DNA of 43,856 nt from the sequence record PQ850603.1; one strand, 5' to 3'. The DNA comes from Escherichia phage GertrudWoker_Bas73. This document shows, in pieces, positions 5,161 to 43,856 of this stretch. The position numbers were made by a program, and so were the translations under genes. Each line of letters starts with the position of its first letter. Position 1 is the first letter of the stretch. Below the pieces are notes generated by a model that had not been told where the DNA came from, searched no databases, and saw only the letters and a list, made by a program, of their open reading frames with translations.

Positions 5161-5189
5161 ATAGTACCCTATTATATTGGGGTGTGCAA
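5161..5189 (-). promoter_or_regulatory. sigma70-like promoter TTGCAC-N17-TACTAT with embedded AATAGGGTACTATT palindrome
   Basis: minus strand reads 'TTGCACaccccaatataatagggTACTATtcag' about 25 nt upstream of the 4930..5133 start. Confidence 0.5.
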
Positions 5190-5241
5190 ACTATTTATTT
5201 ACGTATTCCAGTTATTCCACCGAATTGTAAATGTTGGAATA

Positions 5242-5257
5242 AACTATTCGAATAGTT
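5242..5257. repeat. perfect 16-bp palindrome AACTATTCGAATAGTT
   Basis: self-complementary; overlaps the -35 of the promoter at 5256-5284; carries the same CTATTC/GAATAG half-sites as the promoter operators. Confidence 0.6.
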
Positions 5258-5284
5258 GACTTTTCACTGAAAATGTGCTAAGCT
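5256..5284 (+). promoter_or_regulatory. sigma70-like promoter TTGACT-N17-TAAGCT
   Basis: spacing fits consensus; about 225 nt upstream of the Rz start, so it drives a long leader or a short RNA. Confidence 0.35.
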
Positions 5285-5464
5285 CCACCTGAGCTTGTGA
5301 AGTATGAACAAGCGACCGCGGCGCGGGCAGGTAACGGAGCGGGACGTAAGTCCTGAGTGTAGTTACGCTGACGCGTTCGGAAGGGCCATACTCTATTGCT
5401 TGTGTAAAAAGTAACAGGTTTACTTAGATTACGCCGTTTCTATGTTTAAATGATAAGGACTAGC

Positions 5465-5490
5465 GCCCTGCTTTAAGGCAGGGCTTTACT
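5465..5490 (+). terminator. stem-loop / weak terminator in spanin leader
   Basis: 'gccctgc tttaag gcagggc' followed by 'ttt'; located 20 nt upstream of Rz RBS 'gaaagggg'. Confidence 0.35.
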
Positions 5491-5508
5491 TATCGAGAAA
5501 GGGGAAAC

Positions 5509-5895: not shown

Positions 5896-6004
5896 CGACG
5901 CTGACGAGGATTTAGCTATCGACGTTCAGAACGCTGAATGCGTACGGCAGCTGCGGCTGAAAGTGTTCATGTTGCAGGATTACGTGAGGAATATTCTGGA
6001 ATAG
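5741..6004 (+). CDS. Rz1: o-spanin (Rz1-like outer-membrane lipoprotein), overlapping Rz out of frame
   Basis: GTG start within Rz; signal peptide with lipobox 'LSAC'; Pro-rich mature region 'SSSPAPSQTPIPSP'; extends 109 nt past Rz stop. Confidence 0.5.
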   Translation: MKSLSTLERLVAACALLTLSACSSSPAPSQTPIPSPDMTMMQPPCKLAAPSSDADEDLAIDVQNAECVRQLRLKVFMLQDYVRNILE

Positions 6005-14256: not shown

Positions 14257-14284
14257 AATTATACCCTCAGTAAGTTACTGGTGA

Positions 14285-14313
14285 ATAGTACCCTATTATA
14301 TTGGGGCGCGCAA
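14285..14313 (-). promoter_or_regulatory. sigma70-like promoter TTGCGC-N17-TACTAT with AATAGGGTACTATT palindrome
   Basis: near-identical to the promoter at 5161-5189. Confidence 0.5.
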
Positions 14314-24316: not shown

Positions 24317-24453
24317 TACTCTTCCGATAACTTCTCCAGCACAAACGCCAGTTGCGCATTAGCGGCATCTCTCTGTTGCCGTAGGCGTAGAACCTCCTCT
24401 TCGAGTTCCTTGATACGTTTTTGCAATGCTGGAATCGGGGCTATGATGTTCAT
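24316..24453 (-). CDS. possible small coiled-coil protein (45 aa)
   Basis: ATG overlaps helicase stop (ATGA); heptad-like 'LQKRIKELEEEVLRLRQQRD'. Confidence 0.3.
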   Translation of the reverse strand: MNIIAPIPALQKRIKELEEEVLRLRQQRDAANAQLAFVLEKLSEE

Positions 24454-25874
24454 TTCTTACCTCGTCTCTTCATGTAGTTAAGCAACTCTTCCTGTACCGA
24501 TTTCTTCTCGTCGGTACGCGCGGCAACAACCTCGTCCAGCGTGTCTTTAGCGACTATGTGATAAAGGAACACCGGGCGCTCGTGCCCAGCTTGTTTCTGG
24601 CGAACAGGGCCGATGCGCTCGACAACCTGCAAATAGTGCTCAAGATTCCAGCCTTGTGAAATAAACGCCAGATGATGGCCGCCGTCCTGTAAATTCAAAC
24701 CATGCCCGGCTGACGCAGGGTGTACGCATAAGATTTCTATTTCGCCGCGGTTCCACGCTTCCATCTGCTTATTACCCTTCGCGCCTTTGGAAAACGCCTG
24801 CGCCTGTGGGAATCGCTTAAGGATGCGCTCAAGTTCGTGCTTGAACTGATAGGCGACCAGCAACGGCGCGCCCTGCAACTCCTCCACAATTGACTCCAGC
24901 GCATCAAGTTTCGTGTCGTGCACTTTCTCCCATTCTTTGGTTGATTCGCCATCTGGCCCCGATACATACACGGCACCGGAGGCAATCTGTAGGCACTTCG
25001 ACGTCTTCGCCGCAGCGTTAGCCGCTTCAACTTCTCCGCTTTCCAGTTCCGCGAATAACTTCTCCTCCATATCGATGTACGCCTGACGTGCTTTCTTCGG
25101 CAGGTCGATTTCAACCGGCACAATAATCGGCGCTTCACACCCGAACCACTCGGCGGCGTCAATCGTGAGACTAATGTCCTTCATCTTCTGGTGAATTTCA
25201 TTATCCGCACCCGGGCGTGCGTGGTATTCACGGGCCATCGCAGATTTCCCTTTCTGTACCGAGTTAAACCAGCGGTCGGTGAATGCTGTGTACGATGACC
25301 CCAGGCGCTCGCCTGCGTCGATAAACCAGTTCTGCCCCCACAAGTCCTTGAGGCCGTTTGGTGACGGCGTGCCAGTCAGGTTAATGAAACGCTTAACTTT
25401 GCCAAATGCCACTTTACTAAGCGCCTTTGCCCTCTTGCTGCCTCCAGAACGGCTACGGAATGACTTGAGCTTCGTGCTTTCATCGGCGACGATAACCGTA
25501 AAAGGCCAGTCGTCTTTGCCGTAGTAGTCAATAAGCCACTCGATAACTTCGTAGTTCGTGCACACCACGTTAGCATCTGACTCCAGCGCCGCGATGCGGC
25601 GCTTCTCCAAACCAGTCGCGTCTACGACACGCAGACATGGGAAATTCCACTTAGTTTGTTCCGCCGGCCATGTGCCTGATGCAACGCGCAACGGGGCGAG
25701 GATTAACACGCGGTCCTCTTCTGTAAGCTGCCCGTTGCGGAACAGTCGGTTTAATGTCCACAGTACGCTGCCAGTCTTCCCGGCGCCCATGCTCGCCCAA
25801 ATATTACAGCGATGGTGCCGCAACATGAACGAAGTCATTAGCTTCTGGTATTCGCGCCTTTGAAACTTACTCAT
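24450..25874 (-). CDS. SF2 DNA helicase (DEAD/SNF2-like)
   Basis: Walker A 'SMGAGKTGS', motif II-like 'VIVADEST', C-terminal helicase motifs 'HPASAGHGLNLQ' and 'QVVERIGPVRQ'. Confidence 0.75.
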   Translation of the reverse strand: MSKFQRREYQKLMTSFMLRHHRCNIWASMGAGKTGSVLWTLNRLFRNGQLTEEDRVLILAPLRVASGTWPAEQTKWNFPCLRVVDATGLEKRRIAALESDANVVCTNYEVIEWLIDYYGKDDWPFTVIVADESTKLKSFRSRSGGSKRAKALSKVAFGKVKRFINLTGTPSPNGLKDLWGQNWFIDAGERLGSSYTAFTDRWFNSVQKGKSAMAREYHARPGADNEIHQKMKDISLTIDAAEWFGCEAPIIVPVEIDLPKKARQAYIDMEEKLFAELESGEVEAANAAAKTSKCLQIASGAVYVSGPDGESTKEWEKVHDTKLDALESIVEELQGAPLLVAYQFKHELERILKRFPQAQAFSKGAKGNKQMEAWNRGEIEILCVHPASAGHGLNLQDGGHHLAFISQGWNLEHYLQVVERIGPVRQKQAGHERPVFLYHIVAKDTLDEVVAARTDEKKSVQEELLNYMKRRGKK

Positions 25875-26661
25875 TTACGGCCCCCATGAACGCCTTTATA
25901 AATTCAGCGGCTACTTGCGGGACGATAGCATTGCCGTAACCGCGCAATCGTCCCACTCTGGCGGGTACCCCATTAGCCAGCGGGAATGTGCTGGGTTCAA
26001 CTGGCCTGAATTTTCCATCCCGGCATCCGAGCCAGTCAGCATCTGACCAGAACCCGTTAGGCGGATTGGCTGTGTCAGAGATGCCTCTGTTTGCAGATTG
26101 TGGCCCCCGTTCCTGCCCTGATGGCCTGCTCCCGCCGAGTTGTTCGCACACGGTGTTGGCCAGTTGCTGCGCTCCGAAGAACAATCGATTCCTTTTGTGC
26201 GGTGCGCCGACGCTACAAGCTGGGAGTACGGCAAACCCGACGGCGTAGTCTTCTCTTTCCAGGTGAGTTTGTAAATCGCACATCCACGATTTTGCAATTG
26301 CTGCCGCAACCTGCTCCCCAAAGATGACTGGAGGGTGGCACTCGCTGATGAGGTCGAGGAGCACAGGTGCGAGGTGTCTCTGGTCGAACTGTCCGAGTTG
26401 CTTTCCTGCCGTGCTAAACGGTTGGCAAGGCGGACTTCCCGTCCATATAGGCGTATCTTCAGAAACTCCCGCAAGTCTGAGCGCGAGAGGCCAGCCGCCG
26501 ATACCCGCGAAAAAATGACACTGGGTGAACCCGTCAAGGTCTTCTGGCTTAACTTCGGTAATGCTTCTTTCATCTACAACTCCAAAAGGTATGTGACCCT
26601 GTTTTATCAACTCACGCAGCCACGCGGCTGCGCCTTTATCCCATTCATTGTAATAGTTCAT
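25867..26661 (-). CDS. DNA (cytosine-5)-methyltransferase, compact
   Basis: motif I 'FAGIGG', motif IV '[13 protein letters not shown]' (catalytic Cys), motif VI-like 'FGEQV', motif VIII-like 'KRNRLFF'; only 264 aa. Confidence 0.7.
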
Positions 26662-26849
26662 TTCGCCACCAGCACCAGCTCTTTACGCCCGAACGCCGTA
26701 ACGTTACCGGTTACGTCTTCAATAACCAGTTTACCGTTCGACTCGACGAACACCGTATCAACGGCAACAGGACGACGGGTCTTAACGTTGAAAATCATGT
26801 CGCCTGGTACGATGTCACGTGCTGGTTTGCGGTCATATTCGTGTTTCAT
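26658..26849 (-). CDS. hypothetical protein
   Basis: 63 aa; stop overlaps methyltransferase start (ATGA); preceded by promoter 26884-26912. Confidence 0.45.
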   Translation of the reverse strand: MKHEYDRKPARDIVPGDMIFNVKTRRPVAVDTVFVESNGKLVIEDVTGNVTAFGRKELVLVAK

Positions 26850-27165
26850 TTCTAAATTCCTTATATTGTTGGGGTATGTGCTTACTATAATAGTCTGCTA
26901 TTAGGGTGTCAATCTGTTTTATCGAACCAACGACAAAAACATTTGCGCCACGTTTACGTATACGCTCGTGTTCCCGTAGCTGGTGCGGGTCTGGCTTAGT
27001 GTTTTCGTCTTTCTTCACCTCGACGAACCAGACGATGCCGCCGGGTAGAATTGCCAGCAGGTCAGGAGCGCCTGAACGTCCTTCGTAGGAAAGTTTACGA
27101 ACGAGGCCACCAATAGCCTCGAATCGCTCTTTTGCGTATTTCTGGATGCGGCCCTCTTTAGTCAT
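26833..27165 (-). CDS. VRR-NUC domain nuclease
   Basis: PD-(D/E)XK-like 'GAPDLLAI ... VWFVEVKKDEN'; ~110 aa. Confidence 0.6.
   Translation of the reverse strand: MTKEGRIQKYAKERFEAIGGLVRKLSYEGRSGAPDLLAILPGGIVWFVEVKKDENTKPDPHQLREHERIRKRGANVFVVGSIKQIDTLIADYYSKHIPQQYKEFRNETRI
26884..26912 (-). promoter_or_regulatory. sigma70-like promoter TTGACA-N17-TATAGT with AATAGtctgCTATT palindrome
   Basis: minus strand reads 'TTGACAccctaatagcagactatTATAGT'; lies inside the 3' end of the VRR-NUC ORF. Confidence 0.45.
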
Positions 27166-27314
27166 GACCGCAGCATCCAGGTAAGGAAAACCCAGCCTAG
27201 AATGGCAACACCGGCAAACTGAAAGAACAGGCCGTAACAGAACATAGCAGCTATTCCCGCACCGAGTAACAGTGCGAGCATGGTTACTATGGTCCTAAAT
27301 ACAAACATTGTCAT
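27162..27314 (-). CDS. possible small membrane protein (50 aa)
   Basis: RBS 'gaggggtg'; hydrophobic 'TMLALLLGAGIAAMFCYGLFFQFAGVAILGWVFL'; stop overlaps VRR-NUC start (ATGA). Confidence 0.35.
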   Translation of the reverse strand: MTMFVFRTIVTMLALLLGAGIAAMFCYGLFFQFAGVAILGWVFLTWMLRS

Positions 27315-27396
27315 AATACGCACCCCTCACGTTTCGTATGCTCAATCCCGCAGCGCGGGCAGATTCGGCAGTCTTCTTCATAAAACCAGTAAATTT

Positions 27397-27528
27397 TCAT
27401 TCCAGCACCCACATATAAATTGCGATGAACATGCCCAATATGGCAACCATCATGCCGTATTGTCCCTCGTGACAGTAGACACCGGCGGCAAATCCCGCCA
27501 GTACCGCGATAATCAGTTTACTTGGCAT
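27397..27528 (-). CDS. possible small membrane protein (43 aa)
   Basis: RBS 'gaaggag'; hydrophobic 'LIIAVLAGFAAGVY ... MMVAILGMFIAIYMWVL'; start overlaps HNH gene end. Confidence 0.35.
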   Translation of the reverse strand: MPSKLIIAVLAGFAAGVYCHEGQYGMMVAILGMFIAIYMWVLE

Positions 27529-28213
27529 CTCTACATTCTCCTTCAGGCCACCTATTAGGAAAAGACGGTATATGTGAAACTTCTCTCGCCGCTTTTATTC
27601 TTTTAATGGTGGGACCTATCTCCGTAACCATTTCAATGAATGTAAACCGGTGTCCTCTGGTAAGATTACATGTCTGACAACAAGAAACGCAGTTAGATAC
27701 TATGTGCCCGCTTGTATTATCTATGCGGTCTACCCCGACTTTTGTAGTGCTTCCGCAATAATGGCATGGCTGTGATATTAGTTTAATAACGCTTTCCAGT
27801 GTTAAATCGCAGATAAGCCCTTTTCCTGAATCTGCTCTTTTGTATCCTAACAAAAGCGCGTACGCCCGCGTCCTTTGGTCCTTATTCACCCGTTCCCTGC
27901 GTTGCTTGTTGAGACACTCCCGGCAATCTTTCCTGATATGAGAGCCATTACTTTTATTTCCTTTCCTGAAGTTTTCCTCTGTTAAAGGTTTTACCTCCCC
28001 ACACTTTCTGCATTTAACAGGCTTCCCAGTGAAAACATACCAAGGGCTTTCTCGTCTGGATTTACCTTGTAATTTAAGTTTTTCGTCATACTTTTCCTTC
28101 CTGTTAGCATTTACACACTCTTTACACCAGCGTTGCAGCCCGAGGCGCGTTGACTTTGAAAAATACTCTGTAGTCGCCGGTTTATCTTCGCCGCATCTTG
28201 AACACTTTTTCAT
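27518..28213 (-). CDS. HNH endonuclease (homing endonuclease-like) with N-terminal zinc-ribbon repeats
   Basis: 'CHYCGSTTKVGVDRIDNTSGHIVSNCVSCCQTCN' HNH motif; two 'CxxCGxxKP...CxECxN' repeats; AT-rich versus flanks; track start TTG 28225, ATG 28213 with GGAG RBS preferred. Confidence 0.7.
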   Translation of the reverse strand: MKKCSRCGEDKPATTEYFSKSTRLGLQRWCKECVNANRKEKYDEKLKLQGKSRRESPWYVFTGKPVKCRKCGEVKPLTEENFRKGNKSNGSHIRKDCRECLNKQRRERVNKDQRTRAYALLLGYKRADSGKGLICDLTLESVIKLISQPCHYCGSTTKVGVDRIDNTSGHIVSNCVSCCQTCNLTRGHRFTFIEMVTEIGPTIKRIKAAREVSHIPSFPNRWPEGECRDAK

Positions 28214-28223
28214 TAATAACTCC

Positions 28224-28259
28224 AAAAAAAAATACCGACATAGCCATTATATCGGTATT
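28224..28259 (-). terminator. terminator-like hairpin between polymerase and HNH genes
   Basis: minus strand: 8-bp stem 'aataccga/tcggtatt' with 13-nt loop followed by 'tttttttt'. Confidence 0.4.
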
Positions 28260-28290
28260 TACATTTTCTACAACGTATTTCCTAAATCTA

Positions 28291-30471
28291 CTACTTGGCG
28301 TATCTGTACATTTCGCTACCTTCTGCTACAAGAGGGAACCCCTCCGCCCACTCCGGTAATTCGCACATCAACCGCTCAAGCTCTGCAACATTGTATTCTG
28401 GCGTATCTGGTGTTTCGCAGATAATTTCGTCGTGTACGTGAAGCACAATAGGATAGCCGTTTGCTTCAACGTTCAGCAGTGCATTGGCCAGCAAATCACG
28501 GCACAGCGCCTGAGTACAGTTTTCCACGAGTTTACCAGAGTAGGTGTACTGGAAGCCCCACTGACGGGTTAACTGGTTCTCCCCCTGGTACTTGATGCGT
28601 ACGTTAGTAGACACTTTTCCATCTTCGTCTGTTTCTTTCGACACGCTTAACCCGACGCCCGGATAAGACATAACGCGACCCGACGGCAACGTCATGCGCA
28701 ACCACCAGCCGGCGACTTTGTTGCCGTTGTTGTCTGTCTCTACGTTGCGCGAAAACTTAACCCCCCTAGGCCCCGCGGTGAACTCTTTACCTGGATTGCG
28801 GATAGCGGCCATAGCTGCGTCTTCAATATCTCGCCAGAAAGCTACTGTTTCAGGGTGTGACTCTCGCCACATACGCTTGATAGCGTCACAGGTACGCCAC
28901 ACTTTCTTATCAAGAATATACGATGGTCGGTCATCCTTCTCCCCGGGTCGCGGCGGTCGCTTGGCTTCCTGAATACGTGCCCATTCATAGCCGCGTGCAG
29001 TAGCCGCCCAGATGTGGTCCGGGAAAGTACCGTCCATTGTTTTTGACATATCAACAAGGTCAAGTCCGAGGTTCTTAGCAAACTGAACGAAAGCGCCAAC
29101 ACCACCAGCGTAGCCGAGGCCAAGCTCGCAGGCTTTACCAATCTGGCGCAAGTCTTTGCGTTCCTTCTTAATGTAATCCGGCTCCATGCCGAACATCTTA
29201 CCCGCGGTTACACAGTAAATGTCCAGCCCGGCGCGGAACGTATCTAGCGCGGTTTCTTCGCCTGCCAGCCACGCAAGCCCCCGACCTTCAACGTTAGAGT
29301 AATCGGCGACGACAAACTTTTTTCCGGCTTCCGGGATAATGCAGCTACGCACCGTCGATGCCGTTAGCTTAGCGACATCGAAACGGCGATGCGCGCGGCC
29401 CTTAAGTAACGCTGAAATACCTTTATCCAGTTCATCATCGTGATAGTACCCACGCGCGAGGTTCTGCGGCTGAAATCCTTTACCGGCAAATCGTAATGTA
29501 CGCTTGGCTCCGCCGTACTGAATGCAACCACGACGGCGGTCGTCCGACGAGCGCCCTAACAGCAGCGGGTTATATTTCGTTGACGCTGTGGACGCGGCCC
29601 CGAGGCGCATTTCGATAATCGTGCGTGCGTCGTCCGGTAAATCATCATCCGCCAACAGGTCGTTAAGCGTAGACTTCTGCGCGTTGTGGATGCGGTGCGC
29701 TGGTGCAAGTTCACGCAGAATCGGCAGGAAGTCTTTACCAGTAAGCGAGCCGCCGTATTTGCGCTGTGCTTCTTCCTGTAGCTGGGCCTTGTGTTTTTCC
29801 ACGGCTTCAATCGCGGCTTCCGCCAGCGTCACATCAACCTTAAACCCACGGTCGTTAATCAACTGGTCCAGTTCCAGTACACGGTCTTCGAACTCGGAGT
29901 TACCCCAACGCGGCAGCTTATGGAAGACTTCACGCATCGCAGTGATGTCGCTCACGGCGTACATGATGAACATCGCCCACTCGTCAGGGTGAGTTTCTGC
30001 GGTGTAGCGGCGGATTTTGTAGTTCTTCGGCGTCGGTTTAGAGAAACGCTTAATCAGAGCCTTGCCGCGTTTATCTTTCGCGTTGTCTGCAGACACGCCC
30101 AGCACTTCGCACAGCGCATCAAGAGAACCCGGCAGCGCGTGACGGAACGCCCAAATCATAGTATCAATGGTGTTACTTACCGGAATATCAAAGTCCCAGC
30201 AGTGTTTCATGATTAGGCGATCGAAAAGTCCACCGTTGTGCCACACCATCTTGATGCGGCTGTTGGGCTTAACAAGGCGGCGCAGTGCGCGGTGTAAATC
30301 CCCCGGCATGTCGCTGCCGTCGGTGCAATCCCATACCCGCACAGGTTCGTCGTCAAAAGCATATGTACAGATAAGCACTTCTGTAGTTGGGTGTTCGGCG
30401 TAAGCGTAAGAGCCGACTTTCTTTAAATCGGCTTCGGAGAATGTCTCAAAGTCTAAGAACAGGTAACTCAT
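28291..30471 (-). CDS. DNA polymerase I (family A) with 3'-5' exonuclease domain
   Basis: Exo I 'FLDFETFS'; motif A 'DYSNVEGRGLAWLAG'; motif B 'RQIGKACELGLGYAGG'; motif C 'VLHVHDEI'. Confidence 0.9.
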   Translation of the reverse strand: MSYLFLDFETFSEADLKKVGSYAYAEHPTTEVLICTYAFDDEPVRVWDCTDGSDMPGDLHRALRRLVKPNSRIKMVWHNGGLFDRLIMKHCWDFDIPVSNTIDTMIWAFRHALPGSLDALCEVLGVSADNAKDKRGKALIKRFSKPTPKNYKIRRYTAETHPDEWAMFIMYAVSDITAMREVFHKLPRWGNSEFEDRVLELDQLINDRGFKVDVTLAEAAIEAVEKHKAQLQEEAQRKYGGSLTGKDFLPILRELAPAHRIHNAQKSTLNDLLADDDLPDDARTIIEMRLGAASTASTKYNPLLLGRSSDDRRRGCIQYGGAKRTLRFAGKGFQPQNLARGYYHDDELDKGISALLKGRAHRRFDVAKLTASTVRSCIIPEAGKKFVVADYSNVEGRGLAWLAGEETALDTFRAGLDIYCVTAGKMFGMEPDYIKKERKDLRQIGKACELGLGYAGGVGAFVQFAKNLGLDLVDMSKTMDGTFPDHIWAATARGYEWARIQEAKRPPRPGEKDDRPSYILDKKVWRTCDAIKRMWRESHPETVAFWRDIEDAAMAAIRNPGKEFTAGPRGVKFSRNVETDNNGNKVAGWWLRMTLPSGRVMSYPGVGLSVSKETDEDGKVSTNVRIKYQGENQLTRQWGFQYTYSGKLVENCTQALCRDLLANALLNVEANGYPIVLHVHDEIICETPDTPEYNVAELERLMCELPEWAEGFPLVAEGSEMYRYAK

Positions 30472-30486
30472 TATTTTCGACCCTTA

Positions 30487-30511
30487 GTAAAAAGGCCCAA
30501 TGAAGGGCCTT
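30487..30511 (-). terminator. hairpin terminator between SSB and polymerase
   Basis: 'aaggccc aatga agggcctt' flanked by A/T runs. Confidence 0.5.
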
Positions 30512-30530
30512 AGTTAAATTGATTCAGATA

Positions 30531-31157
30531 TTAACGGCGGCGACGTTCGCGGCGAGGTGCTTCATCTTCTTCGTCGTCTTCCAGGTCGTTGACGCTGGCG
30601 GCAACTTTAGAACCACCAAACGCTTTACCTTCGCCGACGTATTTAATTGCCAGCAGGTTAACACCGAGAACTTTGTATTTCTGGCTAAACCAGACTTCCA
30701 CGCTTACGTTGGCAACGCAGCCGCTGTAAACCTGTCCACCTTCAATCTGTTCGCCTTCAACGTTGAAGTCAGGCTCTACTTGAGTTTCACCTTTTTTAGA
30801 GGTTACAATCAGAGGCTGTTTCTGTGCCTTCGCTTTGAAGTAGAAGCCTTCCGGGAAGTCTTCGAACGGATTGTCGCGCTCGGCAATGTCTTTAATCGCA
30901 CATTTATCCATGTGCTTACCTTCGCCGTAGTTGGACTTCATCCATTTCTCGGCAGCGGCGGCGCCTAACGCTTCTTCGACTACCGCGTAAACGGTGTCGT
31001 AGAGCGCGTCGATTTGCGCGTGGTCGGACGGCAGGATAATAGTAGCGCTGTACTGACCTTTAGTGATTGAGCCATCGTCGTTTTCACGGTCTTTTTCGCG
31101 TTCGAATACGTTAACCCAGGCAGTGTTTACTTTACGCAGATTTAATTTCAGTCCCAT
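30531..31157 (-). CDS. ssDNA-binding protein (T7 gp2.5-like)
   Basis: OB-fold-like 'FYFKAKAQ', 'QIEGGQVYSGCVANVSVEVWFSQKYKVLGVNLLAIKYVGEG' resembling gp2.5; acidic 'DLEDDEEDE' then basic 'RRERRRR' tail. Confidence 0.55.
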   Translation of the reverse strand: MGLKLNLRKVNTAWVNVFEREKDRENDDGSITKGQYSATIILPSDHAQIDALYDTVYAVVEEALGAAAAEKWMKSNYGEGKHMDKCAIKDIAERDNPFEDFPEGFYFKAKAQKQPLIVTSKKGETQVEPDFNVEGEQIEGGQVYSGCVANVSVEVWFSQKYKVLGVNLLAIKYVGEGKAFGGSKVAASVNDLEDDEEDEAPRRERRRR

Positions 31158-31205
31158 TTGATTTCTCGCTTTTCAGTTTCAGTTTACTCCGGGATCTGCC
31201 CGGCC

Positions 31206-31234
31206 AGTGATTAGAACTATAATAGCTAACTATT
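31206..31234 (-). promoter_or_regulatory. sigma70-like promoter TTGACA-N17-TATAGT with AATAGctaaCTATT palindrome
   Basis: minus strand 'TTGACAcatgaatagttagctatTATAGT' ~45 nt upstream of SSB start. Confidence 0.5.
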
Positions 31235-31433
31235 CATGTGTCAAATAAAATTTTGCAATAGGGATTATGTTCTCGAAATTAAGCATATTGGCCGGTTCGA
31301 ACTCATCCTCTACAGGGTCGTATCGCATCATGGTACCGTTCAAGAACGTGAACGATTCCGAGTGTAGATACCCATCCCAGCGCCATACCATCAAAAAATC
31401 TTTATCAGTCGGCATTTCATTTACTTGAATCAT
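31230..31433 (-). CDS. hypothetical protein (67 aa from ATG at 31433)
   Basis: ATG overlaps exonuclease stop (ATGA) and is preceded by 'GAGGAGGA' SD formed by the exonuclease C-terminal codons; track start 31463. Confidence 0.45.
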   Translation of the reverse strand: MIQVNEMPTDKDFLMVWRWDGYLHSESFTFLNGTMMRYDPVEDEFEPANMLNFENIIPIAKFYLTHE

Positions 31434-32725
31434 TCTAAATCCTCCTCTGTAACTTGATTCCACTCAGGACGTGTGTCATCCGCCGTTGCGACGCATGGCG
31501 CACCGGGCTTACGGGTAATGAAGTCTTTCAGTTCTTCTTCCGGTACAATTTTAACCGCTTCGGTCGGTGTCATAAGAACTACCTTTTGCAGCATAGTACC
31601 GTACTTCTCGAATACTGCGTCGGTATCTTTCCACGCACGATTACCGGGGCGACCTTCAACCAGTTTGTATCCTGGCACTTTCTTACCTGAATGCAAAGCA
31701 GCAGCCATCGCTTTCTCAACCTTGTCGATGTGCTGGCGCAACAACGGCAGCTTCTCATACTCAGCGACGAGTTGCTCTGGCGTAAGTTCCAGCGCACAGT
31801 CGTCCTCAAGTTCTTCCGCCAGTACCGCGTTAACGGTTTTTGTACGAGCTGCGCACTGTTCCGAGAAACGACACCACTGACAACCATCTACCGACGGCTT
31901 GAAGTCCGACGCTTTAAGGTTCTTCTTGCCACGGGAATAAGCATCAAGGGCTAACAGCGCTCGTTTCCGCGCGAACTTAGCGAACAGCTCCAGACCTTCA
32001 ACCGAGATGTCCCATTCCGACGCGCCTCCAGCATACGGCTGGAAGATGACCAGACGAACCACGGTGATGTTATAACGTCTCTTGAGTCGGCGATAAACAC
32101 CGAGAGCGTAAAGCATAAGCTGCTTGTTTTCTTTCGCCTCGACACGATGCCGCCCTGTTTTCAGGTCGCCAATAATGAGCATGTGCTCGTCGGTGTTAGC
32201 CAGTTCCTGAACGGCAACAAGGTCAGCGGTTCCGAACGTCTCTAAATCATCTTCATCGCCGTCTTCGCTATCAATAGGTACTTTGTACCCTGGGTGCAAT
32301 ACCTGAGTAAGATTTACCCGCATTTCCAGCTTGGCGTAAGTCGCTACATCGATAATCGCCTTACAATAGTCAGTGTACTTGCGCACCTGCTCAATCATAT
32401 CCGCCGTAATCAGTACCGCGCCTTTCATTGGGCTGATTAGTGCCTTAATCTGGCCTTTACCCTCATCCAGCACGTAAGCACCGACTTCACGCTCTAACGG
32501 CAACGCAGTGCCTTTGATGTACTGGTTTAGGTGCATCTCCGCTATTGTGTGCATGGCCGTACCTAATACAGCAGCTTTACCCGACGTGTTAGGAATATCT
32601 TTTTCACAGGCCAGTGATGCGGCGCAGCTTAGCCACTTTTTAGCACCGGATGGCGACAATAAGGCGTGTACATCGTTATTACCGCCGCGTTCTTTAAGAA
32701 TCATTCTTCTACCCTCTCCACCCAA
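31430..32725 (-). CDS. PD-(D/E)XK exonuclease (Cas4/RecB-like, Cys cluster)
   Basis: 'IIGDLKTG' and 'NKQLMLYALG' nuclease motifs; C-terminal 'CQWCRFSEQC'; C-terminal tail 'TEEDLE'; start possibly at internal Met 7 codons in. Confidence 0.65.
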   Translation of the reverse strand: MGGEGRRMILKERGGNNDVHALLSPSGAKKWLSCAASLACEKDIPNTSGKAAVLGTAMHTIAEMHLNQYIKGTALPLEREVGAYVLDEGKGQIKALISPMKGAVLITADMIEQVRKYTDYCKAIIDVATYAKLEMRVNLTQVLHPGYKVPIDSEDGDEDDLETFGTADLVAVQELANTDEHMLIIGDLKTGRHRVEAKENKQLMLYALGVYRRLKRRYNITVVRLVIFQPYAGGASEWDISVEGLELFAKFARKRALLALDAYSRGKKNLKASDFKPSVDGCQWCRFSEQCAARTKTVNAVLAEELEDDCALELTPEQLVAEYEKLPLLRQHIDKVEKAMAAALHSGKKVPGYKLVEGRPGNRAWKDTDAVFEKYGTMLQKVVLMTPTEAVKIVPEEELKDFITRKPGAPCVATADDTRPEWNQVTEEDLE

Positions 32726-32809
32726 GCATCGTCAAAAGTATCAAAATCAGGATTATCGTATGCTGCGTACGCGTCATCTACATCCGAGTATCGACTGTGC
32801 TCGTAATCT

Positions 32810-33109
32810 TTACCGCCAATTGAGTACATAACTGCAAACATTCCGTACCTCCCACTGGTCAATTAAATGCCGTGTCTTATGGTCGCAGTGTAGGGCCCAG
32901 CCGTACATCGACTCGAAGACATAAAAGTCAGGCTTGGCGAAAGTCGTGCGCTTAATATGCGACACGTGACAGCCTATATCTTTGGGCCGCGGTACTTTGC
33001 CTAAGTACGCCATCTCTTCCATCTGGTGCGCACCTGACGGCGCACGTAACAGCCATAGCGCCTCTGTGTTATCCCGCCTGTCGACGGCGCGGTAGAGTTG
33101 GTAAATCAT
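32810..33109 (-). CDS. hypothetical protein
   Basis: 99 aa minus-strand ORF in replication operon. Confidence 0.4.
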   Translation of the reverse strand: MIYQLYRAVDRRDNTEALWLLRAPSGAHQMEEMAYLGKVPRPKDIGCHVSHIKRTTFAKPDFYVFESMYGWALHCDHKTRHLIDQWEVRNVCSYVLNWR

Positions 33110-33152
33110 AATTCAGACCCTCAGTTAAAGCGGCCCGAAGGCCGCGGGATAG

Positions 33153-33653
33153 TTATTCTTCTTCGAAATACTTGTTCTTGATTGCCGTCAGGCGTTCCAG
33201 GTATTCGGCCAGGTCTTCGTCTTTAATCGCGGCAATCTTCATCTTCTTACCGGTGAACTCTTCCAGCAGTTCATCAGAATCATCGCACGCGGCATCGCTC
33301 GGACCTTCGTTAATTGCATCGTCGATAGCCTGAATCTGGTCGCGCAGAGACTTATAGTCTACTTCTTCTTTCTCTTCTTCCGGCTCTGGCGTCGTTTCCT
33401 CTACTTTAGCTTTACGCGGCTTGCGTTTTGGCTTCTCTTCCTCCGCCGGTTTAGTGTCAACTACGTCTTCACCTTCAACCGGGATTTCTTTTGTTGCTTC
33501 TTCAGCGCACTCAGCTACCGCTTCTTTGGTGTACGATACCGTCTCTACTTCCAGCGGCGTGGCAACCTGAACAACTTGTTTCGCACTGTTCGCGGCAATC
33601 AGTTCGTGCGCAACTACGAAACGTTCCAGTAATACTAAGAATTTCTCTAACAT
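33153..33653 (-). CDS. hypothetical acidic protein
   Basis: 166 aa with Glu/Asp-rich stretches 'PEPEEEKEEVDY', 'DDSDELLEEF'. Confidence 0.45.
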   Translation of the reverse strand: MLEKFLVLLERFVVAHELIAANSAKQVVQVATPLEVETVSYTKEAVAECAEEATKEIPVEGEDVVDTKPAEEEKPKRKPRKAKVEETTPEPEEEKEEVDYKSLRDQIQAIDDAINEGPSDAACDDSDELLEEFTGKKMKIAAIKDEDLAEYLERLTAIKNKYFEEE

Positions 33654-33677
33654 TATTTATTCTCCTGTTTATTTGGG

Positions 33678-33905
33678 CTACTCGCCGTCGCCTTCTGTAA
33701 GGCTATCGTCTATTAATTCAAATTTACCGTTTGGGTGTTGAATAGCTTCTTGCCCGCAATGGTCGCAGACAACAAGTTTATCGAACCCATCAAACTCATC
33801 CCCTACTACGCAAGAAAGTACAAATTTATGTTTTGTGCACACTTCTTGCGGAGCGCCGAAAATTGCTCGAAAACCTTTAGCTATGGCCCCAGTGATTGTG
33901 TTCAT
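33678..33905 (-). CDS. small zinc-ribbon-like protein
   Basis: 75 aa with Cys pairs 'CTKH...C' and 'CDHC'; preceded by promoter 33934-33962. Confidence 0.45.
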   Translation of the reverse strand: MNTITGAIAKGFRAIFGAPQEVCTKHKFVLSCVVGDEFDGFDKLVVCDHCGQEAIQHPNGKFELIDDSLTEGDGE

Positions 33906-33933
33906 ATCTGCCCCTCTCGTTTGGTATGGGCTA

Positions 33934-33962
33934 ACTATAATAGCGAACTATTCACATGTCAA
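33934..33962 (-). promoter_or_regulatory. sigma70-like promoter TTGACA-N17-TATAGT with AATAGcgaaCTATT palindrome
   Basis: minus strand 'TTGACAtgtgaatagttcgctatTATAGT'; the same region on + strand carries 'TATAAT' facing the Cro-like gene. Confidence 0.5.
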
Positions 33963-34026
33963 TGGGCTTTTCTAAAATAATTAATATGGTACTATTCACA
34001 TATCAACTGACTAAGGAGTAATTGAC

Positions 34027-34242
34027 ATGCAACCATCTGAACTAGGCATCCGTGTAGAACAACGCCGCAAAGAACTCGGCATCTCCCAGCGCCGTTTGGC
34101 GGCCCTGACCGGCGTTTCCCAGGGCGCGATTAACCAACTGGCACTTGGAGTAACTCAGGACGTCCGCCCGGCAACGCTGTTCAAACTGGCGGAAGTTCTG
34201 GAAGTAGACGCCAAGTGGCTGGCGTTAGGTGAAGGGGCTTAA
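34027..34242 (+). CDS. HTH XRE-family (Cro/CI-like) transcriptional regulator
   Basis: 71 aa; 'ISQRRLAALTGVSQGAINQLALG' classic HTH; RBS 'aaggag'; only + strand gene in the leftward block. Confidence 0.75.
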   Translation: MQPSELGIRVEQRRKELGISQRRLAALTGVSQGAINQLALGVTQDVRPATLFKLAEVLEVDAKWLALGEGA

Positions 34243-34257
34243 AGCCCCTTTCTTTTT
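34233..34257 (+). terminator. rho-independent terminator after Cro-like gene
   Basis: 'aggggc ttaaa gcccct' followed by 'ttctttttt'. Confidence 0.6.
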
Positions 34258-34259
34258 AC

Positions 34260-36500
34260 CTATTCCAAATCCTCCTCTGTCACCACCAGCATCTCATTTG
34301 GTTCGTATAGTGTCTTCGGCCTTAATCTATCCCCTATTCTTTCGGGTATACGATATGTTCTCGGTACTACTTCGCCGTTAGCATCGCAACCAAGCATTAG
34401 TTCTCCATCTTTCAACATTTTATCAAGATGGGTGTTAGTCACAGAGAAGTCACCGGAACGAGCCACTATCTGCTGCTGAGTAAAACCGCGACCTGTGTCA
34501 TCTGACTGTTGCAGGTCTTCCAGTGCCGAAAGTATTGACTCCTTCCTTACTTCATCCCTGCCGCGTTTAACTTCTTCCTTTACTTTTTGCTTACCTTCTT
34601 TCGTCAACCCTTCTTCCCGCTCTTTCTCCTCGTCAGTTTTGAACGGCTCGAAACCCCACGGCATCAACACAAGCGCCTTGTGTGGTTCAGGAAGGTCCAG
34701 GTTTACGATTGTGCCGTATTCTTCTGTGCCCCCCAGGAACTCAACCGCACGGTACTCTTTCGGCGGCGGAGCTTCGCGGAACTGCACAGACTCCAGCACC
34801 ATGCCAACCGTTTTCTGTTGAGGACCGTGCTTAAATTTCGAGTGGTATACGTTTATTTGACGGTCGGTTGCACGTTCGATTGTCAGTTCCACGTCAACAC
34901 CCGCATACAGCGCCCCACTGCCGCGTGCTTTCTTTCCACCCTTCGGCGTATGGTGGACAACGCCTACTGCGGCTTTAGTTGCATCGCGTACTTCTTTCAG
35001 AATGGCGATAACTTTACCCATGCCGATTGCTGTTGATGAACTGTTCTCGTCGAACTTATCAATCGTCAGTGCCAGGGTCTGGTTAAGGGTGTCGAACGCA
35101 ACCATGCCAATTGGCTCGTCGCCAGCAGTTTCGCGCATTAACTTAATCAGGCTTTTAAGTTTGCCGACTTCGCCCATATCGATGACGTGTACATAATCTT
35201 TACCTTCCCCGCCATATTTAGCCGCTAGTGCATCAATACGGGTGCGTGTAGCTGCGCCACCCTCACCATCAATATAGAAATGGTGGCAACGCTGGGTATC
35301 CGCCCCCGCAAACCTGTACCCGGCGGCGCTGAGGTACATCATCCCCAGCGTATAGAACGATTTGTACGTGCCAGATTCCCCGACGATATCCCAGATACAA
35401 TCCGACGGCATGTACCCCTCAACGACGAAATCAGCCTTTACCGGCTCCGGTAACTCGTCCTCCTCTGGGTCCTCGTCGCCTTCCAGGTCGTCGAGGCTGC
35501 ATGAAACGGATTCACGTACACCCCAACCGATGGCCTCGGCGACTTCACTGAACGGCAGCCCGGTCGCATCGCACGCATACTTCCACACCTCTTTAGGTGA
35601 CATGCCTTCGGTTGCCGTAATGTCGGTGTCGTGAATCATGGTTACGTTCGGCGCTTCGTACCCCTCGCGCGGGAAGCACAGCAGGAAGTCATCCGGGCGC
35701 GGGGTCGGGTCGCTGTAGTTCTCGGCATGTTCCGGCGTAGCTGGCATTTTCAGGCCGCGTGGCGTCATGATGCCGCCGTACTCGAACGCCAGTGCTTCAA
35801 ACGCATCGGTAAACGCGGTGCGCAGTTCTTCTGGTATCTGGTAGTCAGATGCGCTGCTAACGTCAACGGCGGGGATACCTTCCAGTAGCTCATCCGGGTC
35901 AATCAGGTCGTTGCGGCGCGACCAGATAACGGTAGAGCCGACCGGAGGCAGGTACATCGGCTGGGACAGCGTAAACCCGCTGCGGTCGGCGCCCATGCCT
36001 TTGAAGAAGTGCTCCAGCAATCCATGACGAACACGGATGATGTCGCCGCCTTCGACCGGGCGGGCCAGCGGCATGACGACGCGAAAGCGCGGGGACTCGT
36101 CGGTATGTGACGCCGTGGTATATAGGCACATCGCCTGGCGGCTGCGCTTAACCAGGCGCACAGCTTCCTGATACTCTTCCGGCGTTGCACTGTCGAAGTC
36201 CAGATACGCCAGCGACGATTTGCTTACAGACGCGTCACAGCGATAGAAGAAGCCTTTACGCGCCTGCTTAAAGTCTCCAGTTTCCAGGTCTTTTACGGTG
36301 CTGTGCGTAGAGTCGCACGCGGCTGTGATATAGCCGGGGGCGGTCTTAGGGTTAACACCGTCACGAACAGCATCAAGCGGCTGGATTAACTCTTTCAGGT
36401 CGTCCAGTGTTGCCGTGTGTGTGGTTCTGACGTTTATATCCTTTTTCTCTGCCCGCGCGTTGCGACGTGACCACGAGTAGGATAAAATTACATCGGACAT
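34260..36500 (-). CDS. DNA primase/helicase (RecA-like ATPase with N-terminal primase-like region)
   Basis: 746 aa; Walker A-like 'VGESGTYKS'; 'VAFDTLNQT ... VVHHTPKGG' RecA-like core; C-terminal tail 'TEEDLE'. Confidence 0.6.
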   Translation of the reverse strand: MSDVILSYSWSRRNARAEKKDINVRTTHTATLDDLKELIQPLDAVRDGVNPKTAPGYITAACDSTHSTVKDLETGDFKQARKGFFYRCDASVSKSSLAYLDFDSATPEEYQEAVRLVKRSRQAMCLYTTASHTDESPRFRVVMPLARPVEGGDIIRVRHGLLEHFFKGMGADRSGFTLSQPMYLPPVGSTVIWSRRNDLIDPDELLEGIPAVDVSSASDYQIPEELRTAFTDAFEALAFEYGGIMTPRGLKMPATPEHAENYSDPTPRPDDFLLCFPREGYEAPNVTMIHDTDITATEGMSPKEVWKYACDATGLPFSEVAEAIGWGVRESVSCSLDDLEGDEDPEEDELPEPVKADFVVEGYMPSDCIWDIVGESGTYKSFYTLGMMYLSAAGYRFAGADTQRCHHFYIDGEGGAATRTRIDALAAKYGGEGKDYVHVIDMGEVGKLKSLIKLMRETAGDEPIGMVAFDTLNQTLALTIDKFDENSSSTAIGMGKVIAILKEVRDATKAAVGVVHHTPKGGKKARGSGALYAGVDVELTIERATDRQINVYHSKFKHGPQQKTVGMVLESVQFREAPPPKEYRAVEFLGGTEEYGTIVNLDLPEPHKALVLMPWGFEPFKTDEEKEREEGLTKEGKQKVKEEVKRGRDEVRKESILSALEDLQQSDDTGRGFTQQQIVARSGDFSVTNTHLDKMLKDGELMLGCDANGEVVPRTYRIPERIGDRLRPKTLYEPNEMLVVTEEDLE

Positions 36501-36558
36501 GTTGTATTTCCTTCAGCAAGTAATTTGGCCTCGGCGTTCACCGCGTCGGGGCTTTCTT

Positions 36559-36792
36559 TTATTCCAGGTCTTCTAAAGTAGCGGTCATTCCGCGAACTTC
36601 AGCAACAGCACTATATTTCCCGCCAACATTTTTCACGACACCGGATTTAACCAGTACCTTCAACGACCCTTCAATAATGGCTGAACTATAGTACTTAAAA
36701 TAACTACGGCGCAAGTCGATAACGCTGCACGACCCTTTTTTACGTGTTAACGAAACGACCGCCGTAAATACGCGTGACTGGAACTCGGTCAT
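36559..36792 (-). CDS. hypothetical protein with C-terminal 'TLEDLE' tail
   Basis: 77 aa; stop-start overlap with upstream HTH gene. Confidence 0.45.
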   Translation of the reverse strand: MTEFQSRVFTAVVSLTRKKGSCSVIDLRRSYFKYYSSAIIEGSLKVLVKSGVVKNVGGKYSAVAEVRGMTATLEDLE

Positions 36793-37019
36793 TTCACGTT
36801 CTCCTTAATCCACGCTTCCACTTTCTCCGGGTCAAACGTACCTGGCTGACGGCGGCCCATAATGCGAATACAACAATCCGGGAACTTCCCACTCTTTAAC
36901 CAGTTATTCAGCGTTCGACGAGTAACCCCGATACGCTCAGCTACCTCATTCTGCGTCATTCTCAAACCCTCATTATCAGTTAACGAAACAAGTATACATT
37001 GCGAATAATGGGAAATCAA
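36789..37019 (-). CDS. small HTH DNA-binding protein (AlpA/excisionase-like)
   Basis: 'MTQNEVAERIGVTRRTLNNWLKSGKFP' HTH; likely start at internal ATG (36959) with RBS 'gaggg'. Confidence 0.5.
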   Translation of the reverse strand: MISHYSQCILVSLTDNEGLRMTQNEVAERIGVTRRTLNNWLKSGKFPDCCIRIMGRRQPGTFDPEKVEAWIKENVK

Positions 37020-37306
37020 ACATAATCACACCTATTGACATTATGAAAATCTTCGTTTAAGGTGCTTCTATATCTTAGTTACTTTGATTCTTGTTCACCT
37101 TGTAAAACCGCTTAAAACGCAGCTGCGCGCAGCGCAAGCAAAGTGTTAAGCGCAAGTTTACTGAACACGAGAATTAGCGTAACTTTCCTTCCTAAGTATC
37201 TTCGGTTGCCCTGGGCAAGCTCTATTCTCATCGGCAGCATATCTCTTAAGTATCTGATTTTCTTAATGTGCCGCAGATTCGCAACCGTAAAAATGTAACG
37301 ATTATT

Positions 37307-37332
37307 GGGCAGGCTTAAGGCCTGCCCTTTAG
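37307..37332 (+). terminator. GC-rich hairpin, possible weak terminator in control region
   Basis: 'gggcaggc ttaag gcctgccc' followed by 'tttagtt'. Confidence 0.35.
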
Positions 37333-37399
37333 TTACCAAGTAATAAGAATAATGGCACAACCATACCTGAAGAATCACAACGGCAACGTAACTATTCTC

Positions 37400-37428
37400 T
37401 TGCACACCCCAACATAATAGGATACTAT
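37400..37428 (+). promoter_or_regulatory. sigma70-like promoter TTGCAC-N17-TACTAT with AATAGgataCTATT palindrome
   Basis: 'TTGCACaccccaacataataggaTACTATtcac' 25 nt upstream of the 37454 start. Confidence 0.5.
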
Positions 37429-37453
37429 TCACTTATCGAAACGAGACAGAGGG

Positions 37454-37654
37454 GTGAGGGTTATGTTTAAGAAGGGTCAGTTGGTGAAAACGATGTACGG
37501 TAGCTTCGGTATTATTGAAAAGAAATCGACAGTGTACCGAAGTTCTTATGTCGTTAGCTTACTCAGGGAGCACGGGTTAAGTTCCGCAGCGTATTACCGA
37601 GAGTATGAAATTAAACTCATCGGCAACAATTTTAAATTCAAAGGGGCGAAGTGA
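37454..37654 (+). CDS. hypothetical early protein
   Basis: 66 aa; RBS 'gaggggtgagggtt'; first gene of rightward early block. Confidence 0.45.
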   Translation: MRVMFKKGQLVKTMYGSFGIIEKKSTVYRSSYVVSLLREHGLSSAAYYREYEIKLIGNNFKFKGAK

Positions 37655-37842
37655 TGGAAGAATTAATTTACGACGTATACGTCGACGGGGTTATCTCAGA
37701 GACGACAAGTAATAAAGATTACGCAATAAAGCTGTATGTGTATTACGCCGCAGAGGTAGGAAGGATGGTCGAAGTGCGGGAGCAAACGGCATCGAATCAT
37801 GATGCTCGTGCCGACGACTCTGATGGAGGTTGCCGTGAATAA
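37651..37842 (+). CDS. hypothetical early protein
   Basis: 63 aa; ATGA overlap with upstream gene. Confidence 0.45.
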   Translation: MMEELIYDVYVDGVISETTSNKDYAIKLYVYYAAEVGRMVEVREQTASNHDARADDSDGGCRE

Positions 37843-38059
37843 TATTTTAATTGTGGGGGCTGATATGAGTCCGTATAACGAATTCCGCTTACGCCGTCTG
37901 ATTGGCGGTCTGCGCGCCGCCGAGTTTGGTGTTGAATGCTGGGAAAAGGCGAAGTACACCCCGTGGAAGTCGTGGCATTTGGCTCACGCTAAGGCGGTAG
38001 CGCAGTACCGGGGGTACAAGTTAAACAGTTTCCTTAAACACCATGGGGTTGAGTTATGA
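37835..38059 (+). CDS. hypothetical early protein
   Basis: GTG start preceded by 'ggagg'; track ORF starts 37799. Confidence 0.4.
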   Translation: MNNILIVGADMSPYNEFRLRRLIGGLRAAEFGVECWEKAKYTPWKSWHLAHAKAVAQYRGYKLNSFLKHHGVEL

Positions 38060-38199
38060 GAGAAGCATTTGAACGTTGGGCCGTCGTCGAGGGGCTGCCA
38101 GTTAACAAGGGTTCGAAGAAAGAGTACCTGAACGTTAAGACGCGTCTCGCGTGGCGGGCGTGGAAAGCGGGTGTGCAGTATGCGATGAATACGAGGTGA
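38056..38199 (+). CDS. hypothetical small protein (47 aa)
   Basis: ATGA overlap with upstream stop; below track cutoff. Confidence 0.3.
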   Translation: MREAFERWAVVEGLPVNKGSKKEYLNVKTRLAWRAWKAGVQYAMNTR

Positions 38200-41278: not shown

Positions 41279-41764
41279 ATGAGAAACATTAGCAACAATG
41301 GCATCAAATTCACCGCCGCGTTCGAGGGATTCCGCGGAACTGCGTATCGTGCTACGCCAAATGAGAAGTACCTGACTATTGGGTACGGTCATTATGGGCC
41401 AGACGTAACGCCAGGCAAGACCATCACCCCGGGACAAGGCCTCCTGTTACTGAATCGTGATATGGCTAAGGCCGTAGCTGCGGTTGACGCAGCAGCACAC
41501 CATTCATTGACACAGGCACAGTTCGATGCAGTGTGCGACCTGGTATACAACGCAGGTGCTGGTGTGATTGCTGCTACTACCGGCACGGGTAAGGCACTGC
41601 GTTCTGGTGATATTGCAACGCTGCGGGCTAAGCTGGCGATGTTCATCAACCAGAACGGCAAACCGCTACTTGGCCTGCGTCGCCGTACTGCGGGCCGTCT
41701 GGCGCTGTTCGACGGTAAACCGTGGCAAGAGGCTGAGGCTATCGGGCGCGCGGTGAAAGGTTGA
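41279..41764 (+). CDS. endolysin (lysozyme-like muramidase)
   Basis: 'FTAAFEGFRGTAYRATPNEKYLTIGYGHYG' with catalytic Glu context typical of phage lysozymes; RBS 'gggaaggtg'. Confidence 0.8.
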   Translation: MRNISNNGIKFTAAFEGFRGTAYRATPNEKYLTIGYGHYGPDVTPGKTITPGQGLLLLNRDMAKAVAAVDAAAHHSLTQAQFDAVCDLVYNAGAGVIAATTGTGKALRSGDIATLRAKLAMFINQNGKPLLGLRRRTAGRLALFDGKPWQEAEAIGRAVKG

Positions 41765-43778: not shown

Positions 43779-43802
43779 AGCCCTCTACGGAGGGCTTTTC
43801 TG
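43779..43802 (+). terminator. rho-independent terminator at end of early block
   Basis: 'agccctc tacg gagggct' followed by 'tttctgt'. Confidence 0.6.
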
Positions 43803-43856
43803 TACATCCCGCCCAATCCCCTTATATAATCCCTTTAGACGCGTAGGGCGCGTCTG

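Follow-up and report, generated by a model that had tools for sequence, protein, structure and literature searches.

In bacteriophage lambda the strong promoter PR' gives rise to the 6S RNA, a non-coding transcript of about 200 nt which ends at the hairpin tR' and is followed by the lysis and structural genes. We know of no dependence of this late leader on a covarying structure. In T7, RNase III processing hairpins are located in the early transcripts that are made by the host polymerase. The PeSL cassettes of T4-type phages are promoter-stem-loops, short and numerous, which flank protein genes. Phage HK022 possesses two put sites per genome, putL and putR, each downstream of a sigma-70 promoter that heads a long operon, with terminators further downstream; they encode sequence-related, structured nascent RNAs of about 70 nt with two stem-loops (PMC9378689).

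The locus presented here is located in Escherichia phage GertrudWoker_Bas73 (PQ850603.1). The 43,856 nt of this record, referred to as the window, constitute a near-complete Kagunavirus genome (Guernseyvirinae). Comparative sequence analysis indicates that the gap between its divergent gene blocks is an early control region which probably encodes a conserved, transcribed, structured non-coding RNA of about 260 bases. The best reading of these comparisons is that of a modular, promoter-proximal RNA, either a leader or an sRNA, which matches no described family. Its layout most resembles that of the HK022 put RNAs and of the lambda PR'-6S-tR' late leader.

Our literature search turned up no publication that deals with the promoters of these phages, with their non-coding RNAs or with their origins. 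An RNA-seq study of a related Kagunavirus, vB_Eco_K1B4 (sampled at 5, 15 and 30 min), contains gene-level data only; it lists an HTH-domain gene among only four early genes and does not specify which HTH gene this is (PMC12645636).

Genome setting and coding potential

The leftward genes of the window occupy about 24450 to 36959. Among them are a 746-aa primase-helicase (AAA_25; PHROG 'replicative helicase-primase'), a 77-aa protein without an assigned function (PHROG 5169) and, as the first gene of this replication block, a 56-aa HTH_17/MerR-like DNA-binding protein (36789..36959, minus strand; Pfam HTH_17, E 2e-7). To the right, a row of very small genes, again without assigned function, starts at 37463. 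RBS and ATG of the first of these early genes are at 37450..37465 (plus strand); a homologous CDS is annotated in phage XY1 (PHROG 12538). Most likely, the HTH gene starts with ATG 36959, which is preceded by a GAGGG RBS and yields a 171-nt CDS as annotated in K1ind1 and XY1. With this start the non-coding gap comprises about 36960-37462 and is wider than the 37020-37453 delineated in the initial annotation. The gap between divergent blocks was recognized correctly; its left edge at 37020 has to be abandoned because it assumed a TTG start of the HTH gene. The 76-aa ORF which starts with this TTG is probably too long, and its extra 60 nt (36960-37019) contain the leftward promoter.

Phages such as K1ind1 and NTEC3 share 91-95% identity with the region from 36500 to 38100; for the gap alone the value is 95.6% with Klebsiella phage D1. 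A query of 434 nt matches 446 phage records, including those of Salmonella Jerseyvirus at 70-81% identity.

We considered whether a small protein gene is hidden in the gap. ORFs do exist, e.g., a 51-aa ORF on the plus strand (37143-37298) and a 106-aa ORF on the minus strand (37112-37432), and some records carry hypothetical proteins at this position. Yet place, frame and start codon of the ORFs of at least 30 aa, including that of 106 aa, shift among 26 homologous regions, even between close relatives. Three Jerseyvirus copies are devoid of any ORF of at least 30 aa, and the indels among relatives are not multiples of three. We regard a protein gene as extremely improbable. No frame is conserved among the 26 regions, in line with the initial annotation, in which the 106-aa ORF was considered non-coding. 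To judge from these alignments the gap region is non-coding, and the calls of hypothetical proteins in it should be dropped. A search of the whole window against Rfam 15 returned no family at gathering score, and relaxed thresholds gave hits at chance level (E at least 0.9). A tRNA/tmRNA search with ARAGORN found none.

Predicted promoters of the gap

The region was initially viewed as a regulatory hub, and the divergent and tandem promoters bear this out. On the minus strand the promoter scan located P_L, TTGATT-N17-TATACT, at 36991..37019; in Jerseyvirus both hexamers are kept and the spacer varies. A promoter-like site of opposite direction, P_A, is located at 37035..37063 (plus strand). 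It consists of TTGACA (37035-40), a 17-nt spacer, and TAAGGT (37058-63). The underlying pattern TTGACW-N17-TAAGNT is rare, with two occurrences in the 43.9-kb window against 0.06 expected. One is at 37035, directly before the hairpin H1 described below, the other at 5256, i.e., the copies stand at the heads of the two non-coding units dealt with here and nowhere else in the window. In 27 sequences from two genera which share the 5' module of the window (type A), no variation is seen in CCTATTGACAT, in the -35 hexamer, in TAAG-T, or in the T, the A and the last T of the -10 of P_A. Type B modules, which are unrelated to type A, keep TTGACT-N17-TAAGCT plus a TGn extended -10; the Jerseyvirus form of the type B site has TACGCT as its -10.

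A generic promoter scan did not call P_A, because TAAGGT matches TATAAT at three of six positions. It is therefore the conservation of the site which argues for its activity, with a transcription start predicted near 37070-37072. The TTGACA-N17 promoter suspected near 37035 in the initial annotation is thus present as a conserved site.

The rightward early promoter P_R is at 37400..37428 (plus strand), with TTGCAC at 37400-05, N17, and TACTAT at 37423-28. It is preceded by an AT-rich spacer (37337..37399, plus strand) which includes GTAACT at 37388-93, noted in a count of WAGTTAC words. A promoter had been marked at exactly the position of P_R; it is conserved and recurs twice elsewhere in the genome, as a 19-mer across P_R is found again on the minus strand at 5160-5178 and 14284-14302 (0.02 expected). 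The full block TTGC(A/G)C-N17-TACTAT with its conserved spacer exists in three copies, 37400-37428 (+), 5160-5190 (-) and 14284-14312 (-). The spacer is the conserved CCCCAAYATAATAGGR, which itself contains TATAAT or CATAAT. Every copy lies about 40-60 nt ahead of a start codon. The minus-strand copies precede small, separate minus-strand genes embedded in the plus-strand structural region; consequently, the block behaves as a stand-alone promoter class.

The 5' hairpin H1

Downstream of P_A the covariance model and the folds predict H1, an irregular hairpin of 108 nt (37073..37189, stem 37077-37184, plus strand). It is built from P1 (AGUUAC/GUAACU), P2, P3 (UUCA/UGAA), a bulge, P4, P5 and a variable tip. 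P1 shows no variation and the bulge is nearly invariant, CCUU or CUUU. The tips belong to five sequence classes which fold independently into one and the same architecture. Between Kagunavirus and Jerseyvirus the sequence identity of H1 is 48%.

The covariance model R1 (alignment A3) was seeded with 11 Kagunavirus sequences from three tip classes. It scores 117.9 bits at H1 of the window and found each of the 29 type A copies, among them 15 from Jerseyvirus and 3 from Kagunavirus outside of the seed. In an alignment which was itself fitted to the structure, and with which independent single-sequence folds agree, 95.2% of the pair cells form a standard pair compared to 23-48% when the partners are slid by 1-3 columns; 14 of 32 pairs are changed on both sides (at most 5 when slid), and the covariation score is 0.408 (at most 0.079 when slid). 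Not one of 500 shuffles matched the observed percentage paired or the covariation score. A long-range helix CGGUUGC/GCAACCG seen in a single-sequence fold was dropped; it is absent in Jerseyvirus.

Which strand is read? G-U/U-G cells outnumber A-C/C-A cells 56 to 10. Folding of the plus sense yields z-scores of -4.0 to -7.3, that of the complement -1.8 to -5.4, and the plus sense is better in all five classes. The G-U excess and the better folding point to plus as the functional strand. The signature of kept pairing at low sequence identity points to H1 as a structured RNA read from the plus strand.

Two elements of the initial annotation find their place here. The GC-rich palindrome gcagctgcgcgcagc at 37119-37133 is the tip of H1, and its sequence varies in relatives. 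The repeat AGCGCAAG has two copies, at 37131 and 37149, in the 3' arm of H1; they are unconserved and on their own within chance. Both palindrome and repeats are present, but as parts of a single hairpin rather than as independent elements.

Linker and two-tier 3' hairpin

H1 is followed by a linker (37185..37294, plus strand) which stands out by its sequence identity between genera. It contains UUCCUUCCUAAGUAUCU, a predicted small hairpin at 37207-37217, a second copy of TAAGTATCT at 37247, and AGAUUCGC. A helix of CGGCA (37232-36) with UGCCG (37269-73) is possible. In the predicted helices of the linker the changes are one-sided only, and the 3' half of the unit offers hardly any variation for testing pairing. 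The entire 3' half of the unit (37179-37341) shows 87% identity between genera and outdoes the neighbouring proteins, i.e., the N-terminal region of the primase-helicase with 59% aa identity and the 77-aa protein with 69%. TAAGTATCT at 37193 and 37247 together with TTAGTTACT at 37075 make up three of seven matches in the window, where 2.4 are expected window-wide. These words are conserved in relatives, and the repeated taagtatct motifs of the initial annotation are therefore present and conserved.

Two further candidate roles found little support. When the linker was paired with phage mRNAs the best duplexes had z-scores of about -5 to -6 among 17,500 windows, near the expected extremes and at SD-rich sites. 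A comparison by eye with type I-E and I-F CRISPR repeats, considering mimicry, gave short word matches only.

A terminator-like match and the consensus fold define the two-tier 3' hairpin at 37295..37336 (plus strand). The outer tier pairs GUAAC (37295-99) with GUUAC (37332-36). The inner, GC-rich tier, GGGCAGGC-TTAAG-GCCTGCCC, spans 37307-37327 with 8-9 bp (37307-15 with 37319-27) and shows a change of C-G to U-A in one pair. UUUA (37328-31) sits between the tiers, and the DNA after the inner helix reads TTTAGTT. The GC hairpin with subsequent T's which had been noticed at 37307-37332 is conserved and represents the inner tier of this larger structure. The GC stem with its UUUAGUU may act as a terminator, but the run of U's is short, and UUUA forms the internal loop within the conserved two-tier structure. 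For comparison, a clear intrinsic terminator is present at 43780-43805, GCCCTC-TACG-GAGGGC followed by TTTTCTGT; its full U-run contrasts with the UUUA of the two-tier hairpins.

The short non-coding transcript that was proposed initially thus gains comparative support: conserved P_A, covarying H1 with a plus-strand G-U bias, a conserved 3' hairpin, and no conserved ORF.

Recurrent AGTTAC words

AGTTAC/GTAACT words are located at 37076, 37179, 37330 and 37388, in alternating orientation and within 320 nt. Two of them form the invariant base of H1, one contributes to the outer tier of the 3' hairpin. The Jerseyvirus type B units reuse UACGCU/AGCGUA in the same manner. The words could be alternative pairings or protein-binding sites. 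The latter are suggested by type B loci, in which AGTTAC words occur outside of the transcribed part.

This leads to the proposition that control is exerted at the DNA level only. AGTTAC/GTAACT and TAAGTATCT would then be operators to which the neighbouring HTH protein binds, and the hairpin would result from inverted operator repeats or be a linker for recombination. The invariance of P1 fits, as does the clustering of 4 of the 15 WAGTTAC copies of the window within 320 nt (37076-37394). In mosaic relatives AGTTAC words are found at module junctions, and in type B loci upstream of the promoter. Operators leave unexplained, however, the 14 covarying pairs, the five different pairing tips and the G-U strand bias. 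As the sole explanation, DNA-level control appears rather improbable to us; operators as such can be compatible with the RNA explanation.

Modular build of the gap in Guernseyvirinae

We compared 47 distinct copies of the gap from IMG/VR and GenBank. The order of modules is leftward promoter, 5' module, 3' module and conserved P_R block. The 5' module exists in at least three unrelated versions, A as in the window, B with TTGACT-N17-TAAGCT, and C, and each starts with a promoter-like site. Of the 3' module there are four or more versions (a to d). All have a GC-rich hairpin, which is clearly two-tiered in a to c, and variant c has no U-run. Some phages carry two 3' modules in tandem. In most copies a junction word, AAGTnnnTGA, is located at a distance of about 270-290 nt from the start of the HTH gene, whatever the 5' module.

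The exchange extends into the leftward genes. HTH variant and 77-aa gene change along with the type of 5' module. Phages with type B or C modules (L020, L025-L047) lack the 77-aa gene (36559-36792 in the window) and have other small genes between HTH gene and primase-helicase; their HTH protein is 79-86% identical. The N-terminal region of their primase-helicase remains 95-97% identical to that of the window. According to these alignments, this whole stretch is a mosaic hot spot.

This bears directly on the replication origin which the initial annotation had considered. In such an origin, iteron-type or transcript-primed, the primase-helicase or the HTH protein would recognize DNA, and the P_A transcript or hairpin DNA would help in opening or priming. 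The region adjoins replication genes, AGTTAC words are clustered in it, and phages with the type A module also have a particular HTH variant as well as the 77-aa gene. It further has the lowest GC content of the window (the lowest 60-nt value in the region, 30%, is at the two promoters), coincident with the minimum of the cumulative GC skew. An argument against an origin is that unrelated modules can take the place of the 5' module although the primase-helicase hardly changes (95-97% identity). Iterons, tandem repeats and DnaA boxes (TTWTNCACA) are absent from the region, in which short repeats have two copies only. A unit of like design is located in the structural gene region (5256-5508), G-U bias and covariation fit an RNA, and public records have no origin annotated here. 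The GC-skew analysis recommended initially yielded a minimum near 37000-37430 and a turn near 37430; both coincide exactly with the flip of the coding strand, so that they are uninformative on replication, and origin predictions from GC skew should be distrusted at this locus. Altogether, we consider an origin in the gap to be highly improbable. P4-like iterons were also looked for and rejected: TGTTCACC, which we take to be the P4 origin repeat, is found once in the region, in H1, and its copies in the window are four and scattered, compared to 1.2 expected.

A second unit ahead of the spanin gene

The second TTGACW-N17-TAAGNT site heads a type B unit at 5256..5508 (plus strand), recognized by the promoter pattern and by covarying helices. 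TTGACT-N17-TAAGCT is followed by a structured leader and then by a two-tier hairpin. Only a few bases separate this non-coding stretch of about 215 nt from the i-spanin gene with its RBS and ATG (5509). In the 3' hairpin, GAUAAG (5452-57) pairs with CUUAUC (5489-94) as outer tier, the inner helix is at 5465-84, and again UUUA is in between. Of the 181 matching phage records, which come from both genera, 180 have the unit with at least 90% identity. It is homologous to the type B module at the HTH locus of other Kagunaviruses, and Jerseyvirus has a diverged form of it ahead of the spanin gene. In this form the first hairpin, the core helix and both 3' tiers are kept by compensatory changes (AUACG/CGUAU; GCCCGGC/GCCGGGC), and the U-run is reduced to UU. 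Type A and type B units thus have in common the type of promoter and the layout of the two-tier 3' hairpin, and their sequences differ. No promoter exists between the type B unit and the RBS of the spanin/structural operon. Given this arrangement, the type B RNA must form the 5' leader of the operon that follows, except when it is terminated.

The i-spanin gene (5509-6004) has an embedded o-spanin with a lipobox at 5741, and structural genes are next. The spanin gene is about 8 kb away from the endolysin gene (about 41279-41764 in the circularly permuted window), beside head genes.

Relation to described systems

With HK022 put the units share the number of two per genome and a promoter-proximal structured RNA at operon heads. 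Unlike put, the unit of the gap is made up of a 108-nt hairpin, followed by a linker and the two-tier hairpin; its 5' domain is unrelated to that of the second unit, and sequence similarity was not found. Because the put definition comprises about 70 nt, two stem-loops and sequence-related copies, the unit does not belong to the put family. The lambda PR'-6S-tR' arrangement matches the layout of the type B unit well; the type A unit differs as it has a further promoter after it. Neither an antiterminator-like nor a Q-family antiterminator gene was detected among the 10 neighbouring genes whose proteins were scanned. By analogy, the unit may work like HK022 put or the lambda late leader, yet it appears to be a member of neither family.

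Like the T7 RNase III hairpins, H1 is long, irregular and promoter-proximal, with internal loops. An RNase III site is characterized by a duplex of at least about 20 bp that is interrupted by internal loops, and H1, with 32 modelled pairs and a paired tip, has such a duplex. Type B, interchangeable with type A, has no helix of such length. PeSL cassettes are resembled by the repeated early-promoter blocks, the hairpins at borders of shuffled modules and the short conserved junction words; here, unlike in PeSL, the shuffled cargo is the structured non-coding domain itself.

A possible leader or small RNA

How could the gap operate? P_L and P_A would be back-to-back promoters of host type (sigma-70). 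P_L would drive the HTH and primase-helicase genes leftward while P_A would fire rightward and start a non-coding unit of about 260 nt (approximately 37071-37336) composed of H1, the conserved linker and the two-tier GC hairpin. About 65 nt past this hairpin P_R would serve the small early genes. Of the polymerases starting at P_A, some would stop at the two-tier hairpin and the rest would read on with the leader, which in turn would set read-through, stability or translation of plus-strand operons. P_A activity, start and end of the RNA as well as any cis mechanism are what we infer from the comparisons described above.

We give an even chance to a promoter-proximal structured RNA which acts mainly in cis on rightward transcripts. 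A cis role is suggested by the second unit, which shares the type of promoter and the layout of the 3' hairpin. It is further suggested by the fact that the type B unit runs into the RBS of the spanin/structural operon without a promoter of its own after it, and that type B replaces type A at the HTH locus in related phages. At the early genes a cis leader is not obviously needed because P_R serves them.

A free-standing early sRNA acting in trans is possible, though we view it with some doubt. The P_A RNA of about 260 nt would end with the 37307-27 hairpin plus UUUAGUU, and its conserved single-stranded linker would bind a host factor or RNA common to E. coli and Salmonella. The UUUAGUU after the 3' hairpin fits a terminated sRNA equally well. 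Further, a terminator-like hairpin is present, and with P_R downstream the early genes can do without P_A. The higher conservation between genera of the 3' half (87%) than of the primase-helicase (59% aa) fits a conserved host partner, and swapping of modules is typical of accessory cargo. On the other hand, the sister unit of type B meets the RBS directly, without a promoter in between. The U-run is short, down to UU in Jerseyvirus type B and absent from 3' variant c, and UUUA is an internal loop within a conserved two-tier hairpin. Neither unit has any similarity in 5,426 E. coli genomes, and outstanding complementarity inside the phage genome is lacking. Weighing these points, we favour the cis-acting leader over the free sRNA.

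An extension of the cis-acting leader appears unlikely to us but is worth spelling out. The units may constitute an undescribed family of Guernseyvirinae RNAs with an interchangeable 5' domain and a two-tier 3' hairpin, heading early and late operons as nascent-RNA read-through switches. If true, a virulent phage without a polymerase of its own would govern its passage from early to late expression in a put-like or riboswitch-like manner. The helix words AGUUAC/GUAACU here, and UACGCU/AGCGUA in Jerseyvirus type B, would then be the alternative long-range pairings of the switch.

Kagunavirus and Jerseyvirus phages have been isolated widely for therapy and biocontrol, with E. coli K1 and Salmonella as targets. 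A conserved structured RNA which heads both plus-strand transcription units would be a candidate for the timing of expression with host polymerase alone, and it would add a new RNA family to Rfam.

Distribution in IMG/VR

A 17-base word from the 3' domain of type A was found in 21 IMG/VR stretches, 18 of them on contigs already sampled. The core pattern of type B was found in 62 stretches, 13 on further contigs. Twelve of these 13 are chance-like, either GC-rich coding sequence or an unrelated UUCG terminator, and one (L153) is a further type B copy. No copy of the type B core was seen in IMG/VR outside of Guernseyvirinae-like contigs.

A minor observation concerns the linear GenBank records of Salmonella phage blauehaus (MT074473) and also of phage dunkel (L005, L119). 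They end and begin inside the gap, about 10 nt past the junction of the 5' and 3' modules.
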